Part shown: in pieces, positions 1 to 6,694 of the stretch
How the letters are laid out: each line of letters begins with the position of its first letter
Position numbering within the stretch: the stretch's first letter is position 1
DNA from: a virus
Lineage: Duplodnaviria; Heunggongvirae; Uroviricota; Caudoviricetes
IMG/VR virus record: IMGVR_UViG_2684622670_000020
Length of the DNA: 7,698 nt
Strand: one strand, 5' to 3'
Translations under genes and position numbers: made by a program
The notes under the pieces: generated by a model
The model's database searches: none
What the model was told of the DNA's origin: nothing
What the model saw: the letters and a program-made list of their open reading frames with translations, nothing else

Positions 1-17
1 TCACGCCGCATCCGGCA
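1..17 (-). repeat. partial REP-like (repetitive extragenic palindrome) sequence at window edge
   Basis: Reverse complement of 1-17 reads TGCCGGATGCGGCGTGA, which matches the start of a common E. coli REP unit as I recall it. The element is cut by the window edge, so the palindrome partner cannot be seen. Confidence 0.35.
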
Positions 18-264
18 TGAACAAAGCGCACGTTGTCTGGCCCCCTGCGGGTAAACGCGCCTGCCACAATTTTTTACCGTTGCTCATGTTGTAAGCGCGC
101 AGGTAGTTATCTGCCGTAGCGGCGATAAACAGCACATTACCCGCAGTAGAGATCGGCCCGCCCAGCATCGGCATTTCCATATTTAACGGTACCGGAACGG
201 GCATCGGGAACGACATGCTGTCCTGCGGCGTACCAATGCGTTTCTTTTCACAAATTGAACTTTA
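1..264 (-). pseudogene. gcd: truncated 3' fragment of a PQQ-dependent (quinoprotein) glucose dehydrogenase gene
   Basis: Minus-strand frame is open from the in-frame stop at 262-264 to the TGA at 1-3 (ORF track 1..216 starts at the first Met). The segment PMLGGPISTAGNVLFIAATADNYLRAYNMSNGKKLWQARLPAGGQ matches my recollection of the C-terminal propeller region of E. coli Gcd. The last 11 codons (TTCALFMPDAA) run into the REP-like sequence and do not look like Gcd. A full gene would need about 700 more codons upstream, which are absent. Confidence 0.55.
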
Positions 265-573
265 TTAACGGATTCCGCTTATGAATAGTTTTGCTGGTAT
301 ACTGCATGCCTTGCGCTTTGTTGCGGTGCCGAAACCCGCCCGTGCGAAGTGATTTGTTTTTAAATCATATGGTTAGAGATATGAAACATACTGTAGAAGC
401 AAAAATTATTTTGTATTCATGCTGTTATGTGTTTGCGTTGGGTTCTGTATTTATTTTTTATAATCAATGAGATAAATTCATTTCTTGTTCGTGTGCTTTC
501 TCCTTTTTTGGTGGTCTAGTATCGAGTGGTGTATCACTTGGTATATCACTTTTGGAGGGGCTGGGGAGGATGC

Positions 574-1800
574 GTGGCTGGCACAAACAAACTGAGTGAT
601 AAAAAATTAAGATCGCTTCTCGGCGTAAAGCGGGATTCAGTAATTACCATTGCGGATGGTGAAGGATTAAGCATCAAAGTATCCATGATGGGATGCATTA
701 GTTGGGTTTTCTCTTATCGTCTTGGTGGGCGTGGGAGCAAGTTAGAGCGCATTGTTCTTGGGCGTTACCCTGACATGTCGTTGAAAATGGCCAGGGAGAA
801 GAGGGAACTATGCCGAAAATGGTATGCGGAAGGGCTGAATCCACGACTTGAATTAGAACTTAGCGCAGAAGAAAACCTTAACCCCGTAACTGTCCATGAT
901 GCCCTTGAATATTGGCTAATTCATTACGCAAGAAAAAAACGTAGTGACGAGGAACTGGTGCGGGCGCAATTACGTAAGCATATTTATCCGCGTCTTGGCC
1001 ACTATCCGTTATCCCGGTGTGAAACGCGTCACTGGGTGGCATGTTTTGATGAAATTAACCAGTCCAGGCCAATCACTGCCGGGCGAATGTTCCAGATTTG
1101 TAAACAGGCCTTAAGATTCTGCAAGGTTCGCCGTTATGCCTCATGTGATGCCCTGGCTTTTATGACAATCCAGGATGTAGGGCAACCATCGGGGCAGCGT
1201 GATAGGGTGCTGTCAGATAGTGAGTTAGCTGATGTATGGCGGTGTACTTATAGCGATGAACAGCAACTTTATTATCTTCGTCTGCTTAAGTTGCTTGTGC
1301 TGTTTGGGGCGCGAACAATGGAAGTAAGATTATCCCGGTGGAGTGAATGGGATTTTCAGTCATGGATTTGGACGGTTCCTAAAGAACACAGCAAAACTCG
1401 TGAAAAAATAGTTCGTCCAATTCCAGAGGGCATTCGCCCATGGATTGAGGATCTAAAAAAGGAAACGGGAAAAACAGGAATTGTACTGGGTGAAGAACGT
1501 TCCCGCCAGGCTGCTTCGCTTAAAGGGCGTAGGCTATACAAAGATTTTCATCATAATGAGCCATGGACGCTTCACGATTTGCGCAGAACATTTTCTACAG
1601 GTTTAAATAATATGGGTATTGCGCCACATATTGTAGAGCTTTTACTTGGTCATGCATTGCCGGGGGTGATGGCTATTTATAACCGTAGTCTGTACTTACC
1701 TGAGAAAATGGATGCGTTGAATAAGTGGTATGGCCGATTAGAACTTCTGGCGGGTAATCATCAAAATGTGGTGCTGTTACCTGTATCGAATAGAGGTTAA
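574..1800 (+). CDS. int: P4-family tyrosine site-specific integrase
   Basis: N-terminal arm-binding-type segment (NKLSDKKLRSLL...DGEGLSIKVS...WVFSYRLGG...LGRYPDMSLKMAREKR). C-terminal catalytic signature HDLRRTFST ... LLGH ... AIYNRS (His-x-x-Arg, His, Tyr nucleophile). The ORF track opens at GTG 526; I prefer GTG 574, which is in frame and sits 4 nt after a GGAGG Shine-Dalgarno at 565-569, giving M-AGTNKLSDKK. Confidence 0.88.
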   Translation: MAGTNKLSDKKLRSLLGVKRDSVITIADGEGLSIKVSMMGCISWVFSYRLGGRGSKLERIVLGRYPDMSLKMAREKRELCRKWYAEGLNPRLELELSAEENLNPVTVHDALEYWLIHYARKKRSDEELVRAQLRKHIYPRLGHYPLSRCETRHWVACFDEINQSRPITAGRMFQICKQALRFCKVRRYASCDALAFMTIQDVGQPSGQRDRVLSDSELADVWRCTYSDEQQLYYLRLLKLLVLFGARTMEVRLSRWSEWDFQSWIWTVPKEHSKTREKIVRPIPEGIRPWIEDLKKETGKTGIVLGEERSRQAASLKGRRLYKDFHHNEPWTLHDLRRTFSTGLNNMGIAPHIVELLLGHALPGVMAIYNRSLYLPEKMDALNKWYGRLELLAGNHQNVVLLPVSNRG

Positions 1801-1891: not shown

Positions 1892-2821
1892 ATGGCTAAC
1901 GACATTAAAATTCCTTTTCAGTATTGCAACATTGAACGTGCATCAAGATTGCTGGGTTGCGAGATTAGCGATCTCGTGAATTTAGGTGTTACTAAAAAAA
2001 TAGCTTTATGCCTAAATTTATTTGATGCTCGCGCTGTTTTATATATGAATACTGATAGCAAGTCTGCAACTGCTTGGTTTGATACCAGAAATGCAAAATC
2101 GACCACATCACTGATGGGGAACAATATTACTGAATACTCCAGATTTCATCTTTTCAGATACAATTATAACGAGGAGACAGATGAAACTATACACGCGCCT
2201 TTATTCGGTCAAGACTCAGAAAACGGATGCTTTAGCTCTATTGGTAGGGCTTATGGATTGTGGCGCCTTTGGAGTGGGCTGGAAGAGCTACAAAATTTTG
2301 GAGAGTATTCCCTAAGTGGTTTTGAATTAACCCCGTGTCATCCAGAAACTGATAATCCTGCCGTACAACTTTTAATGGTTGGTGAAGATAGTGATTATGA
2401 TGAAGAAGACGATCAAATATTAAAGAATAATATTTCTATAAATGACTTGTGGATTACCGCTCATGATATAAGGCGACTTCTTGACTGTGGTGGCGATTAT
2501 TTTACGCTAACAGATAATTTTGAATCTGTAGAACCTCACAAGATGAATGGCAATGAAATTGTGCACCATTCTGCTGAAAGACATGCAAGAAATCGAGAGC
2601 AAATTTTAATGGTTGCTATGCGTTTTAAAGAAGAGCAACAAAATACTTTTAATGAGACCTGCAGAAAAAACGATGGAACGATTAACTATTCTGCTTGGGC
2701 TCGTGAGTTGATCGCCAGACCTGATTGGTTCATTAATAGTGAATTGCCAATAAAAACAGAAACAAAAATAGCAGCAATTTTAAGTAATGCTCATAAGAGG
2801 CCGAGTGAAAGGTCGCAGTAA
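1892..2821 (+). CDS. hypothetical protein, 309 aa, AT-rich orphan cargo gene
   Basis: Long ORF with ATG at 1892 and GAGGG 7 nt upstream. Strongly AT-rich compared with its neighbours (hand count of 2401-2460 gives 17 of 60 G+C; 5041-5100 in rep gives 34 of 60). Contains an acidic stretch EDSDYDEEDDQ. No catalytic motif recognised. Confidence 0.7.
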   Translation: MANDIKIPFQYCNIERASRLLGCEISDLVNLGVTKKIALCLNLFDARAVLYMNTDSKSATAWFDTRNAKSTTSLMGNNITEYSRFHLFRYNYNEETDETIHAPLFGQDSENGCFSSIGRAYGLWRLWSGLEELQNFGEYSLSGFELTPCHPETDNPAVQLLMVGEDSDYDEEDDQILKNNISINDLWITAHDIRRLLDCGGDYFTLTDNFESVEPHKMNGNEIVHHSAERHARNREQILMVAMRFKEEQQNTFNETCRKNDGTINYSAWARELIARPDWFINSELPIKTETKIAAILSNAHKRPSERSQ

Positions 2822-2840
2822 GCCTTACTCATATACTCCT

Positions 2841-2885
2841 AAGCATACTGATATATTTATAAGCATTATCAGTATGTTTCTATGA
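2841..2885 (+). terminator. possible intrinsic terminator or regulatory hairpin downstream of the 309-aa gene
   Basis: Inverted repeat CATACTGATA (2844-2853) and TATCAGTATG (2867-2876), extendable to about 13 bp with one G-T, around a 13-nt loop, followed by GTTTCTATG. The stem is AT-rich, so it is weak as a terminator. Confidence 0.3.
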
Positions 2886-2958
2886 TTACTACTGTATTTT
2901 AATCCAGTATTAAAGATTGCAAAATAGCCTCCGCAAGCATAGATACAGTGGAGGCAAT

Positions 2959-3243
2959 ATGACAAAAACTACATTCATTCCCCCAACTCCAGAACAACGC
3001 CGGGCGCTTCTTGAAGAATACGGTTTTGAATTTGATCGCCGTATCCGTGAAAAGGAATGCCAGGAAATCACCAGTCTGTCGCGCTCAACTCGCTTCAAAA
3101 TGGAAAATGAAGGGCGTTTCCCGCTTCGTTGTCATTTCGGGCGCAATAGCTGTGCGTGGCTTCTCTCTGATGTGCTTTGGTGGGTTCGTAACCCACCTGC
3201 TGTAGATAAAGTCAATAATCCGTACGGTAAGAAAGCTGCATAA
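2959..3243 (+). CDS. alpA: AlpA-family (phage/prophage) transcriptional regulator or excision activator, HTH
   Basis: The segment ITSLSRSTRFKMENEGRFPLRCHFGRNSCAWLLSDVLWWV fits the AlpA pattern (TGLSRSTIYRL..G.FP.P.K.G.R.V.W..SEV..WI). ATG at 2959 is preceded by GGAGG at 2950-2954. The ORF track opens at TTG 2917, which I consider less likely. The protein has an N-terminal extension relative to 70-aa AlpA. Confidence 0.7.
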   Translation: MTKTTFIPPTPEQRRALLEEYGFEFDRRIREKECQEITSLSRSTRFKMENEGRFPLRCHFGRNSCAWLLSDVLWWVRNPPAVDKVNNPYGKKAA

Positions 3244-3262
3244 GGGGGGAGTATATGACACA

Positions 3263-3292
3263 TAAAACAAAGGCGACCGGGGGCGGTCGCCA
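3263..3292 (-). terminator. rho-independent terminator for leftward transcription
   Basis: Perfect 8-bp GC-rich stem GGCGACCG (3272-3279) and CGGTCGCC (3284-3291) with loop GGGG. On the minus strand it is followed by the U-tract UUUGUUUUAU (complement of 3262-3271). On the plus strand no U-tract follows. Confidence 0.45.
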
Positions 3293-3553
3293 ATGAAAAC
3301 ACTAAACATAAGCCCGAACATCATAGCGATTTGCTGGCTGGTGGGCAATGTGATCAGTGTGCTGGCTTGCTGGTGGATTATCAGCCTTTTGGCTCGATAC
3401 CGCGCTGTTGTAATTCTTTGCGGATTATTCGCTTTATCCAGGCAGCAAGAGAATCATCGCCGTCCTGTTGTTGTGCTTTTTCCATCTTTTCCCGTAAGTC
3501 AGGATCTAAACGGAACTGGAACGGAGGATTACCACGCCTTTCGCTTTTGTGTG

Positions 3554-3581
3554 TTGACACGTTAATTACACCTCATGTAAT
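3554..3581 (+). promoter_or_regulatory. sigma70-like promoter for the rightward replication operon
   Basis: TTGACA (3554-3559), 16-bp spacer, TGTAAT (3576-3581). Predicted start near 3588-3590, about 100 nt upstream of the first operon ORF. Confidence 0.45.
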
Positions 3582-3588
3582 GTATTTA

Positions 3589-3609
3589 TGTGTAATGACA
3601 CATTACACA
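3589..3609. promoter_or_regulatory. palindromic operator overlapping the predicted transcription start
   Basis: TGTGTAATG-aca-CATTACACA is a perfect 9-bp inverted repeat with 3-bp spacer. The half-site TGTAATG also occurs at 3576-3582, overlapping the -10 element. Confidence 0.4.
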
Positions 3610-3693
3610 CAATCGGCGCAAAAAGCAAAGCCCCGCAAGTGTCGTTACCACTGGCAGGGCTTATAACCACAAACCGTTATGAGAGGTAGTTTT

Positions 3694-3891
3694 ATGGCTG
3701 TAAGACAGCATACCCCACGCCTAGCGCACACACAAACGGCCTTTGTGTGGCGTTTTCTAGCACTGAGTGCCGGAGAATCTCAAATCATCCACGTCACCGC
3801 ATGGACAGAACGCGAAGCGCGTAACCGTTGCCCGTCCGGTTGTGTCGCTGTATTCGCCGCCCGTATTCGTCAGGGGGTGAGTCATGCATAA
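3694..3891 (+). CDS. small hypothetical protein, 65 aa (possibly Icd-like, unverified)
   Basis: ATG at 3694 lies 7 nt after GAGAGG; the ORF track's earlier ATG at 3679 has no Shine-Dalgarno. First gene after the promoter. FVWRFLALSA...TEREAR...VFAARI loosely resembles small prophage proteins annotated as Icd-like, from memory only. Confidence 0.5.
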   Translation: MAVRQHTPRLAHTQTAFVWRFLALSAGESQIIHVTAWTEREARNRCPSGCVAVFAARIRQGVSHA

Positions 3892-4111
3892 AATACCCTT
3901 TGATGTTCTTGTTCATTCTGAAAACGCATTAATCCGCGCAAAGGAAATGGACGCATTACTACTTAAGTTAATTGATGTGCCGGAAAGTGGCGATGAATCT
4001 GATTCAATGATGTTTTCTGCCGTGCGTACGCTATTAACGCCTGTTATTAATGAATTAAATACGGTGATGGCAATTCACGAGAATAATAAAACGCATCACA
4101 CCGGAGAATAA
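3884..4111 (+). CDS. small hypothetical protein, 75 aa
   Basis: ATG 3884 overlaps the end of the previous ORF (ATGCATAA), suggesting translational coupling. Acidic, predicted helical; no family recognised. Confidence 0.5.
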   Translation: MHKIPFDVLVHSENALIRAKEMDALLLKLIDVPESGDESDSMMFSAVRTLLTPVINELNTVMAIHENNKTHHTGE

Positions 4112-4116
4112 AAACC

Positions 4117-4416
4117 ATGAAACAGAAAAATTCTGGCTTTACTGCCAGCGGCCTCCCTCGGCCTGAAATCTGCCCCGGCGATATTTACCGGGATAAATAC
4201 GGCAGCACGGTAATGATTAAAGGTGTTGCCGGACGGTGCGTTACTTACCGCCGTGAAGGTTATGAATATGACTGCGTGATGTCTGTTTATCAGTTCCGGC
4301 GTGATTTTTCTCTGGTACAGAACGCAACACGCGGTAAGCCCACCAGCAGGGAAAAAGCACGGGAAAATATTAAGAAAATAAAAAGCATGCTCAGCGCATC
4401 CAGAGGTAAAAAATGA
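4117..4416 (+). CDS. small hypothetical protein, 99 aa, basic C-terminus
   Basis: ATG 4117 with GGAGA upstream; its stop overlaps the rep start (ATGA at 4413-4416). No family recognised. Confidence 0.55.
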   Translation: MKQKNSGFTASGLPRPEICPGDIYRDKYGSTVMIKGVAGRCVTYRREGYEYDCVMSVYQFRRDFSLVQNATRGKPTSREKARENIKKIKSMLSASRGKK

Positions 4417-5819
4417 AACTGGCACCAAACGTAAAACTGTTACCGAAAGATAAACACACTGAGGCGGTTATTTTTGCGGGTGATAATGCTCACTCCTTTG
4501 CAGAACATTACATGATTGCACAGGCCAAAAAAGCAGGCGATCCCATCCCTCCGGTTTACCTGGGCCGTTATCAGTTAAGCGAACTGGACAATTTACAGAT
4601 TGTTGATGAAGGACGATACAGAGCAAAGGTCATACGCGCCGGAAACCTGGACGATATGCAGATGCTGACCATTGCCACAAAACTGGCGATCGCAGGTGTC
4701 CGGGAAGCGCGGTTACTTTCAGAGAATTTCGAACTACTGGAGGACTGGAGCGAGCAACTACCGCGCCTTAAAGAAACCTGGGAACGTGGGGAAAGCCTGG
4801 TCATGAATGGTGGAAAGCGAAAAATCACACTTCCCATCTCATGGGGTTCTGAGGGATTCGACGCGCAGCAAAGCTACGTAATTAAGGGGCTTATTCCGGC
4901 TGAATCATTATGCAGCACCTACGGCGCGAGTGGTTCCTATAAATCGTTCCTCGCTATCTCCTGGTCGTGCCATGTTGCCACAGGTATGGCATGGGGAGGC
5001 CGCAGGGTAAGTAAGGGCGCGGTTATCTATATCGCTGGCGAAGGCAGTATGGGCGTAAAACGCCGCGTTAAGGCGTGGGAGATAACCCACGACAAGGTGG
5101 TTACAGATTTGTGCATCATTAACGCGCCTGTTTTCCCCGCATCGCCTGACTATGTGGAGCAGGTTATCAGGACTGCCGGACTTGTTAAGAGCAGAACGGG
5201 CGAAAATGTGCGGCTGATTGTGATCGACACACTGGCCCGTTGCTTTGGTGGGAATGATGAAAATGATTCCCGCGATATGGGCGCATTTATCCAGGGGTGT
5301 GACGCGATAAAGCAGGCCACAGGGGCCACGGTGCTGGTGGTTCACCATTCCGGCAAGGATGAAACAAAGGGGGCGCGTGGTTCCAGCGCATTCCGTGCCG
5401 CGCTTGATGCAGAGTACCGAATCAGCCGGGAAAATTCAGACGTTACAGCACTGGTGGCGGCGTGTACGAAGATGAAGGACGCAGAGGAGCCAAAAGAAAG
5501 CGCATACGACCTTAAAAGCGTGGAGGTGTTTACCGATACAGATGGCGAAGAGATTGTGTCTATGGTGGTGATTGACGTTCCCCGCGCCCCTGCTGAACTG
5601 GAGCGCATAGAGGAGGCCGGGAACAAGACGGAAAATCACGCCGCATTATGGCAGTGCATCAGAACACGGGCAGCACACAAAGAGCCATGCACTATCGCCC
5701 TGCTACGCGACGATATGAAAAAGCTGGGGTATGAGATGAAGCACTTCCGGCGCTGGCTGTACAAGCTGGAAAATGATGGCGTAATCGTTATTGACGGTGA
5801 TGACGTGCGCCCACTGTAA
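4413..5819 (+). CDS. RepA-like (AAA_25 / DnaB-like RecA-fold) replication ATPase-helicase of the island
   Basis: P-loop-like GASGSYKS, Walker-B-like LIVIDTLARCFGGNDENDS and VLVVHHSGKD, which is the motif order of RepA/AAA_25 replicative ATPases. About 90 C-terminal residues look like a separate possible DNA-binding domain. An iteron array lies immediately downstream. Confidence 0.75.
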   Translation: MKLAPNVKLLPKDKHTEAVIFAGDNAHSFAEHYMIAQAKKAGDPIPPVYLGRYQLSELDNLQIVDEGRYRAKVIRAGNLDDMQMLTIATKLAIAGVREARLLSENFELLEDWSEQLPRLKETWERGESLVMNGGKRKITLPISWGSEGFDAQQSYVIKGLIPAESLCSTYGASGSYKSFLAISWSCHVATGMAWGGRRVSKGAVIYIAGEGSMGVKRRVKAWEITHDKVVTDLCIINAPVFPASPDYVEQVIRTAGLVKSRTGENVRLIVIDTLARCFGGNDENDSRDMGAFIQGCDAIKQATGATVLVVHHSGKDETKGARGSSAFRAALDAEYRISRENSDVTALVAACTKMKDAEEPKESAYDLKSVEVFTDTDGEEIVSMVVIDVPRAPAELERIEEAGNKTENHAALWQCIRTRAAHKEPCTIALLRDDMKKLGYEMKHFRRWLYKLENDGVIVIDGDDVRPL

Positions 5820-5820
5820 A

Positions 5821-6022
5821 AAGTGGGGAGTAAAAGTGGGGAGTATGGGGAATTTAACAAAATTGAAACACTATTCCCCACTTTTCGACCTGTATACATC
5901 CAAAAAAGTGGGGAGTAAAAAACACAATGAAAAACAAAGCATTAGATTCACCCAAAAAACGAGATGGGGAGCAAGTGGGGAATTTAAAAAGTGGGGAGCA
6001 AAAGTGGGGAGTGGTGGGGAAT
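5821..6022. repeat. iteron array, putative origin of replication of the island
   Basis: Ten copies of the core (G/A)TGGGGA: direct at 5823, 5836, 5845, 5908, 5964, 5975, 5991, 6004 and 6014, and inverted at 5875-5881. They form two clusters (5823-5851 and 5964-6020) flanking an AT-rich stretch, immediately 3' of rep. Confidence 0.6.
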
Positions 6023-6272
6023 GACCAGAAAAACCAGAGATAAGACAGCGCCAAAATATAAAGCATTAGACATGACAGAGCACGCCTTAAAGGTGGCAAT
6101 CAGAACGATAGACCGCCATGCCGGGGAAGGATACGCGAAAGCACATCCCGAACTGATAAGCGCATTCATGACCACGGCGGCGGCAAACTTTGCCACGCTG
6201 ACTGAGCGGGAAATTGCGGAAGCGGAACAGGTGACAACCATCAACGTTAAAACCGGAGAGGTGACAGCATGA
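6021..6272 (+). CDS. small hypothetical protein, about 83 aa
   Basis: ATG 6021 lies 9 nt after GGGAG inside the last iteron; the ORF track opens at GTG 5991, within the repeats. Its stop overlaps the ssb start (ATGA at 6269-6272). No family recognised. Confidence 0.5.
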   Translation: MTRKTRDKTAPKYKALDMTEHALKVAIRTIDRHAGEGYAKAHPELISAFMTTAAANFATLTEREIAEAEQVTTINVKTGEVTA

Positions 6273-6694
6273 CAGCACAGATAGCGGCTTACGGGCGGCT
6301 GGTGGCTGACCCGCAGTTAAAAACCACCAGCAAGGGAACACAAATGGCGATGGCGAGTATGGCGGTTTCCCTGCCGTGCAGCCAGGCCGATGACGGAACG
6401 GCGACGATGTGGTTATCCGTTCTGGCGTTTGGCAGACAGGCCGATGCACTGGCCAGGCACCACAAAGGCGAACTGGTGAGCGTGGCGGGTAACATGCAGG
6501 TAAGCCAGTGGACAGGCCAGAACGGCGAAACGCGGCAGGGCTGGCAGGTCATCGCAGACAGTGTAATCAGTGCGCGAACGGCGCGACCGGGCGGCAAAAA
6601 AGGTCAACAGGGCCAGGCCACTGACGCACTGAACAGGGCAAAACAACAGACAGGCCAGCACGATGACCCGTACGGGGACGGGATACCGTTTTAA
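6269..6694 (+). CDS. ssb: single-stranded DNA-binding protein (SSB)
   Basis: OB-fold pattern aligns by eye to E. coli SSB (MWLSVLAFGRQAD vs EWHRVVLFGKLAE; KGELVSVAGNMQVSQWTGQNGETRQGW vs [27 protein letters not shown]). Gly/Gln-rich linker, and acidic C-terminal tail DDPYGDGIPF ending in the SSB hallmark IPF. Confidence 0.85.
   Translation: MTAQIAAYGRLVADPQLKTTSKGTQMAMASMAVSLPCSQADDGTATMWLSVLAFGRQADALARHHKGELVSVAGNMQVSQWTGQNGETRQGWQVIADSVISARTARPGGKKGQQGQATDALNRAKQQTGQHDDPYGDGIPF

Follow-up and report, generated by a model that had tools for sequence, protein, structure and literature searches.

Positions 1-247 of the DNA analysed here are very probably Escherichia albertii host chromosome, made up of a decayed gcd gene and a REP element, and the island that adjoins them is an unrelated element that recombines at the start of hpt. 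The analysed stretch (hereafter the window) comprises the 7,698 nucleotides of IMG/VR record IMGVR_UViG_2684622670_000020 and is the reverse complement of positions 2-7699 of locus L013, the end of contig BBVP01000015.1 (GCA_001514785.1). The decisive evidence is an alignment in which window positions 1-399, both truncation junctions of gcd included, match four island-free E. albertii loci at 100% identity. Because the same sequence stands in genomes that lack the island, the gcd stub was not made by the island. A preliminary description, drawn from the sequence of the window, had proposed either that gcd was disrupted by island insertion and later rearrangement or that a duplicated 3′ fragment of it had been displaced to an att junction. 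Neither proposal survives the comparison, given that the island-free strains carry both truncation junctions together with an intact hpt. The same comparison, with gcd and with island-free relatives, confirmed the match to gcd and located the empty site, which is an intact hpt beside the stub.

Structure of the gcd remnant

Window positions 1-400 were aligned to the Escherichia coli cueO-gcd-hpt region of strain CUVET18-1530 (locus L002), and fall into three blocks that are all collinear with the E. coli locus. Positions 400 to 248 match the gcd-hpt intergenic region and the start of hpt (141/153 identical), positions 247 to 38 match gcd nt 2052-2261 (189/210 in the global alignment; about 90-91.6%, E = 2e-77), and positions 37 to 1 match the sequence 18-54 nt past the gcd stop codon (L002 3001-3037; 36/37). 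The middle block, on the minus strand at 38-247, thus holds 210 nt of gcd, corresponding to codons 685-753 of 796. This upholds the earlier impression of a gcd-like frame of about 70 codons, truncated at both ends and preceded by a stop: a double stop, TAATAA, lies just past the fusion point at 247/248, within DNA derived from the gcd-hpt intergenic region. Read on the minus strand through window 1-300, the frame runs from an arginine through the two stops into SSICEKKRIGTPQDSMSFPMPVPVPLNMEMPMLGGPISTAGNVLFIAATADNYLRAYNMSNGKKLWQARLPAGGQTTCALFMPDAA and ends at a further stop; residues 681-760 of E. coli Gcd, for comparison, read EVVWKKRIGTPQDSMPFPMPVPVPFNMGMPMLGGPISTAGNVLFIAATADNYLRAYNMSNGEKLWQGRLPAGGQATPMTY. 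The frame's tail, TTCALFMPDAA and a stop, is encoded by window 1-37.

The gcd-derived origin of this stretch is supported by nucleotide similarity, by a Pfam PQQ match (PF01011, on the 71-aa ORF at 1-216) and by its position, since cueO and hpt flank the remnant in E. albertii and mark the syntenic place of gcd. What remains at 38-247, on the minus strand, is a pseudogene remnant and no longer a gene. It lacks a promoter, a native start codon and a native stop codon. A functional Gcd would have roughly 796 aa, a membrane anchor at its N-terminus and an entire PQQ beta-propeller, whereas the callable ORF amounts to 71 aa; the promoter and start that would face hpt were removed by the deletion that spans -71 to 2051, counted from the gcd start. 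The 71-aa ORF itself (1-216, minus strand) begins at an internal in-frame ATG of gcd, crosses the deletion junction and stops in the REP; it is an accident of that internal ATG and the chance stop.

Beyond the remnant, window 1-37 is post-gcd sequence from the cueO-gcd intergenic region, and its bases 1-16 make up the right-hand arm of a REP palindrome. The left edge of the window cuts the element in half, and a complete copy is present in island-free E. albertii. That copy (from locus L006) folds at -24.3 kcal/mol with z = -5.06, and none of 200 shuffled sequences was as stable; the element has matches at 40 or more places in the median E. coli genome and is present in 5426/5426 genomes. A stable hairpin from an imperfect palindrome and many dispersed extragenic copies identify it as a canonical REP element of the kind normally found downstream of gcd. 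The earlier remark that a non-Gcd-like tail runs into a REP-like sequence was therefore right, as judged by the 36/37 match to the E. coli post-gcd spacer, the hairpin and the copy number.

Distribution and decay in E. albertii

Nine island-free E. albertii loci (L004-L012) share the gene order can, hpt (178 aa), 71-aa stub and cueO. The exact 71-aa product occurs in 57 collection blocks and an 87-aa form in 32, and further variants exist. A pattern spanning both junctions found a single contig among 185,579 species representatives, that of E. albertii NBRC 107761 = DSM 17582 (the type strain, GTDB), and among 5426 complete E. coli genomes none had a place covering at least 80% of window 1-399, nor did a mislabelled E. 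albertii turn up among them. A protein search with the remnant as query returned only fragments of at most 122 aa and missed E. coli Gcd itself; the variant forms surfaced in it.

Other E. albertii lineages carry stubs of 87 aa (with a frameshifted tail), of 55 aa (with a different start) and of 71 aa with substitutions. The 87-aa form bears the NCBI name 'quinoprotein glucose dehydrogenase [Escherichia albertii KF1]'. Two variant loci (L023 and L027) show the same cueO/stub/hpt context and the same two junctions; one further locus, L014, was left out of the lineage alignment, and its match to both junctions comes from the pattern search. Relative to the window, the KF1-like and CP030783 lineages have a 1-nt deletion in a C-run, which causes the frameshift, as well as point substitutions. 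Between the window type and the KF1-like type, the remnant differs at 6/210 positions (2.9%) plus the 1-nt indel, as against 13/2561 (about 0.5%) across can, hpt and cueO (Fisher p = 0.002), a comparison of rates that turns on six substitutions in the remnant; four of these six change the amino acid. Because the junctions are common to divergent lineages, and because of the frameshift and start variants and the excess divergence, the stub appears to be old and to be decaying neutrally: to judge from the sequences compared, it is older than the divergence of these E. albertii lineages, and its subsequent evolution looks neutral.

The stub is an ordinary instance of gene decay that public annotation already shows, and nothing new in kind; our literature search found no paper on gcd loss in E. 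albertii. Here, 'species-wide' means the type strain and a limited number of lineages. If the stub is fixed in the species, it would be a species-diagnostic marker, PQQ-dependent periplasmic glucose oxidation would have been lost in E. albertii, and the fused junctions would, once fixation is confirmed, offer a simple means of telling E. albertii from E. coli. For annotation, the 71-aa 'PQQ' ORF predicted by gene callers in E. albertii is best labelled a pseudogene remnant.

The attachment site at hpt

Positions 248-380 of the window (plus strand) are the native gcd-hpt intergenic region, that is, the upstream sequence and leader of hpt, and belong to the host and not to the island: they are 100% identical to island-free E. 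albertii, and 248-400 matches the E. coli empty site at 141/153 positions. The attL core follows at 381-399 (plus strand) and corresponds to hpt nt 1-19, ATGAAACATACTGTAGAAG; to its right the sequence departs from hpt, and the island-free loci diverge from the window only after this string. Measured rightwards from the gcd fusion point, the island junction is 134-152 bp away and falls within hpt codons 1-7.

The core, ATGAAACATA[C/T]TGTAGAAG, occurs once in empty sites and twice, as attL and attR, in complete E. coli islands, with a core-to-core spacing of 10.8 kb in L019 and 14.9 kb in L003. At attL the host C stands at position 11 and island sequence follows (CAAAAATT...), whereas in the E. 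coli islands attR shows T at that position and then continues into hpt (TAATGATCCCC...). This C/T split places the predicted strand exchange within TGTAGAAG, window 392-399. In two E. coli loci (L015 and L016) the base after the attL core is the hpt base T, so the shared att segment may extend to GAAG-Y-AA.

The right end of the island, as seen in the E. coli copies, also supplies hpt codons 1-6, and upstream of the attR core lies a degenerate copy of the hpt leader that reads gtgaatttgtttttaa...aaatca...gtta, as compared with the native gtgatttgtttttaaatcatatggtta (L003 15440-15517; L019 20530-20607). This island-borne leader presumably replaces the displaced hpt promoter and ribosome-binding site and so keeps hpt functional, and a replacement-sequence strategy that preserves the target gene has been stated for such sites (PMC10111431). 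In the present genome, attR and the associated copy of hpt are on another contig; the E. coli relatives that show attR are L003, L019 and L020. The far end of this island would read ...ATGAAACATATTGTAGAAG and then hpt.

That hpt serves as an attachment site is already published: 49 PICIs in hpt were reported as a new subfamily (Mageeney et al., 2023, NAR Genom Bioinform, PMC10111431), and the attL/attR alignments of hpt PICIs in its supplement show the identity block TATGAAACATA. The same block, at the 5′ end of hpt, is found at attL in the window (381-399), and at this, the only junction inside the window, the island matches the hpt-PICI subfamily. In the portion of the supplement text available to us, 'albertii' does not co-occur with hpt entries (PMC10111431). 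The satellite is best delimited at hpt nt 1-19.

The identical integrase in E. coli gives the same answer from the other side. Among the matches listed, it adjoins a full-length 796-aa gcd in 8/8 places, and in the two loci that reach the far end of the element (L019 and L020) hpt comes after it; since the same integrase sits at the hpt site beside an intact gcd, its target is hpt and not gcd. The preliminary description had noted the lack of a tRNA gene upstream of int, and ARAGORN indeed reports no tRNA or tmRNA in the whole window, nor is there a match to any Rfam family in window 1-600. Its suggestion of a protein-coding or intergenic target was correct as to a protein-coding gene, which is hpt and not gcd, with the attL core at the hpt start. 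It had also allowed that another att target at the true island boundary would overturn its account of the gcd fragment; hpt is such a target, and the boundary lies inside the window.

Origin of the remnant and competing explanations

Relative to E. coli, two deletions separate the remnant from an intact gene. Deletion A, of about 2123 bp, comprises 71 bp upstream of gcd and gcd nt 1-2051, and so the promoter and codons 1-684; deletion B, of about 147 bp, runs from gcd nt 2262 to 17 nt beyond the stop, and so takes the last 43 or so codons and the stop codon. With E. coli, and not the ancestral E. albertii gcd, as the reference, the deletion end points and the microhomologies may be off by a few nucleotides; the position of junction B is ambiguous to a similar degree. 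The fused junctions read AAAGCGCACGTTGTCTGG and TTTCTTTTCACAAATTGAAC. At junction A, the gcd-internal side is CGTTTCTTCCACA followed by CC and the intergenic side is GTCATCACA followed by ATTC, with a TCACA-like motif in both and once in the fusion. The motif on both sides suggests a microhomology-mediated deletion, and the two deletions probably arose by illegitimate recombination at short microhomologies. In the sequence of events that we propose, both would have occurred at the cueO-REP-gcd-hpt locus of an E. albertii ancestor and left the 210-nt stub, which would then have passed to strains with and without the island and would now be drifting neutrally.

Could the island nonetheless have broken gcd, by integrating into it, by an integrase-mediated rearrangement at its end, or by leaving a duplicated 3′ fragment at an att junction? 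Only about 330 bp separate the stub from int, there is no tRNA target, and E. coli similarity to the int-proximal DNA starts exactly at 248, which resembles an edge. This explanation is nevertheless extremely unlikely. [quoted passage not shown] Two narrower versions were rejected: position 248 is not an island edge, as the empty-site alignment places 248-380 in the host intergenic DNA, and recombination by the integrase between attL and a pseudo-att in gcd is contradicted by deletion A, which stops 133 bp before the core and whose junction does not resemble it. A gene fragment beside an integrase gene, then, need not be the integration target; here the true att site is about 150 bp off.

Decay of the host gene through two separate deletions has also to be set against a transposable element, for instance an IS at the REP or in gcd, that made adjacent deletions and was then lost. 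In some E. coli, the REP-containing spacer between cueO and gcd does harbour an IS110-family transposase (PF01548/PF02371; L015 and L016, 6015-6995), and deletion B abuts the REP. Both junctions, however, are free of any IS end, target duplication or foreign DNA, the fusion being homologous to E. coli throughout, and there are two separate deletions with the internal piece between them still in its original orientation, so we regard the involvement of such an element as unlikely. It is less likely still that the stub has been kept for a function, whether it yields a small peptide of PQQ-repeat type or acts as a spacer or terminator insulating cueO and the promoter of hpt. The stub does persist, with a callable ORF, at every E. 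albertii locus examined; that ORF, however, is not conserved (71, 87 or 55 aa, with a frameshifted tail in one form and another start in another), most of the between-lineage substitutions (4/6) are nonsynonymous, the remnant has diverged about 5 times as much as the flanking genes, and the gcd promoter region is deleted. Microhomology-mediated loss of most of gcd at this host locus, followed by neutral decay, remains the preferred reading.

The left end of the island

A chimeric ORF of 29 codons spans the attL junction at 381-470 (plus strand) and joins hpt codons 1-6 to 23 hydrophobic island codons (MKHTVEAKIILYSCCYVFALGSVFIFYNQ, then a stop). It is contained in a longer ORF at 291-470, and the same junction sequence occurs in E. 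coli islands. The chimeric ORF lies downstream of the native hpt upstream region and is co-oriented with int. Transcription from a host promoter in the hpt region may read through this predicted ORF into the satellite, in which case host purine-salvage transcription would feed expression of the satellite integrase. A consensus scan matched no sigma-70-like site in window 1-700, hpt's own included, and what we say about promoters is for this reason something that we infer. Two propositions, that the stub is fixed in E. albertii and absent elsewhere, and so an undescribed marker, and that the hpt promoter feeds both the chimeric ORF and int, strike us as possible but rather doubtful.

Just upstream of the int start, at 529-550 (plus strand), stand two tandem GTRTATCAYT repeats, 12 nt apart, against 0.04 matches expected by chance. 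A second pair lies 75-85 nt to the left of the attR core in E. coli islands (L003 15433-15454; L019 20523-20544), and there is none elsewhere in those islands. The two pairs are probably arm-type binding sites of the integrase.

The integrase gene, int (574-1800, plus strand), has a GTG start and encodes a tyrosine integrase of 408 aa with P4-like architecture, in which the arm-binding, central and catalytic domains are all recognised by Pfam: Arm-DNA-bind_3 (PF13356, E = 2.4e-16), Phage_int_M (PF22022, E = 1.1e-6) and Phage_integrase (PF00589, E = 1e-15). A 100% identical protein is encoded in 284 collection blocks, and E. coli and E. albertii have this protein in common. The int-alpA RNA motif (Rfam RF02996) follows at 1809-1875 on the plus strand, scoring 55.2 bits against a gathering threshold of 35.8 (E = 1.3e-9); the match is full-length and stands directly after the int stop and before a 309-aa ORF.

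Gene content of the satellite

The regulation and replication half of the satellite, its left half, occupies 1892-7545 on the plus strand. A 309-aa protein without a Pfam match (1892-2821) is followed by genes that Pfam assigns to AlpA (2959-3243), DUF4222 (4117-4416), an AAA_25/RepA-like helicase (4413-5819), SSB (6269-6694), ProQ/FinO (6731-7267) and PerC (7264-7545, E = 6.5e-36). The contig ends 1 nt past the window and about 150 nt after perC, and the packaging module and attR are off the contig. The assembly breaks inside the island, possibly at a point where the sequence that follows is common to related satellites or prophages in the genome.

E. coli AST240 carries a related element between an intact gcd and hpt. 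Its genes run in the order int, hypothetical, AlpA-like HTH, Icd-like, DUF4222, RepA helicase, SSB and ProQ, and then capsid, protease, portal, connector, HNH, TerS and TerL. A PICI runs from int through alpA and a replication module (primase/helicase) to a packaging module and lacks a full set of phage genes; the window contains int, AlpA, an AAA_25 helicase and SSB, and the packaging module is seen in relatives only. The element is probably a phage satellite of PICI type, belonging to the hpt-targeting subfamily already published. In E. coli, the same integrase and left module are joined to two packaging modules. One is HK97-like (L015-L018, L021 and L022), with capsid PF05065, S78 protease, portal and HNH, TerS and TerL being seen in AST240; the other is lambda-like (L019 and L020), with gpE PF03864, gpD PF02924 and Nu1. 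The satellite is a modular mosaic.

In attaching-effacing E. coli, the LEE pathogenicity island is activated by homologues of PerC/Pch, and E. albertii is itself a pathogen that carries eae. It is conceivable that the satellite, through its PerC-family activator, engages in cross-talk with the LEE.

Comparison with known systems

In E. coli, gcd encodes a membrane-bound PQQ-dependent quinoprotein glucose dehydrogenase of 796 aa. The E. albertii remnant occupies the same place in the same orientation between cueO/REP and hpt, but it keeps only 70 of the 796 codons, having lost its promoter, the membrane segment at the N-terminus, the C-terminus and the greater part of the propeller. The adjoining element, an imperfect extragenic palindrome that reads GCCGGATGCGGCGTGAACGCCTTATCCGGCCTAC on the gcd strand and is highly repeated, shows nothing unusual when set beside the REP elements of Enterobacteriaceae.

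As to the satellite, capsid-forming PICIs (cf-PICIs) of E. coli have reportedly been described by Alqurainy and colleagues in 2023. The E. coli islands with the identical integrase resemble these in having an HK97-type capsid, protease, portal, head-tail connector, HNH, TerS and TerL and no tail genes; the packaging module of the present copy is off the contig, and its relatives have either the HK97-type or the lambda-like module. A further counterpart is the hpt-targeting subfamily (PMC10111431), with which the present island shares the target gene, the identity block TATGAAACATA... as it appears in the supplementary alignments, and an integrase gene next to attL. It differs in that its host is E. 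albertii and not E. coli, and in that its left half only lies in the window.
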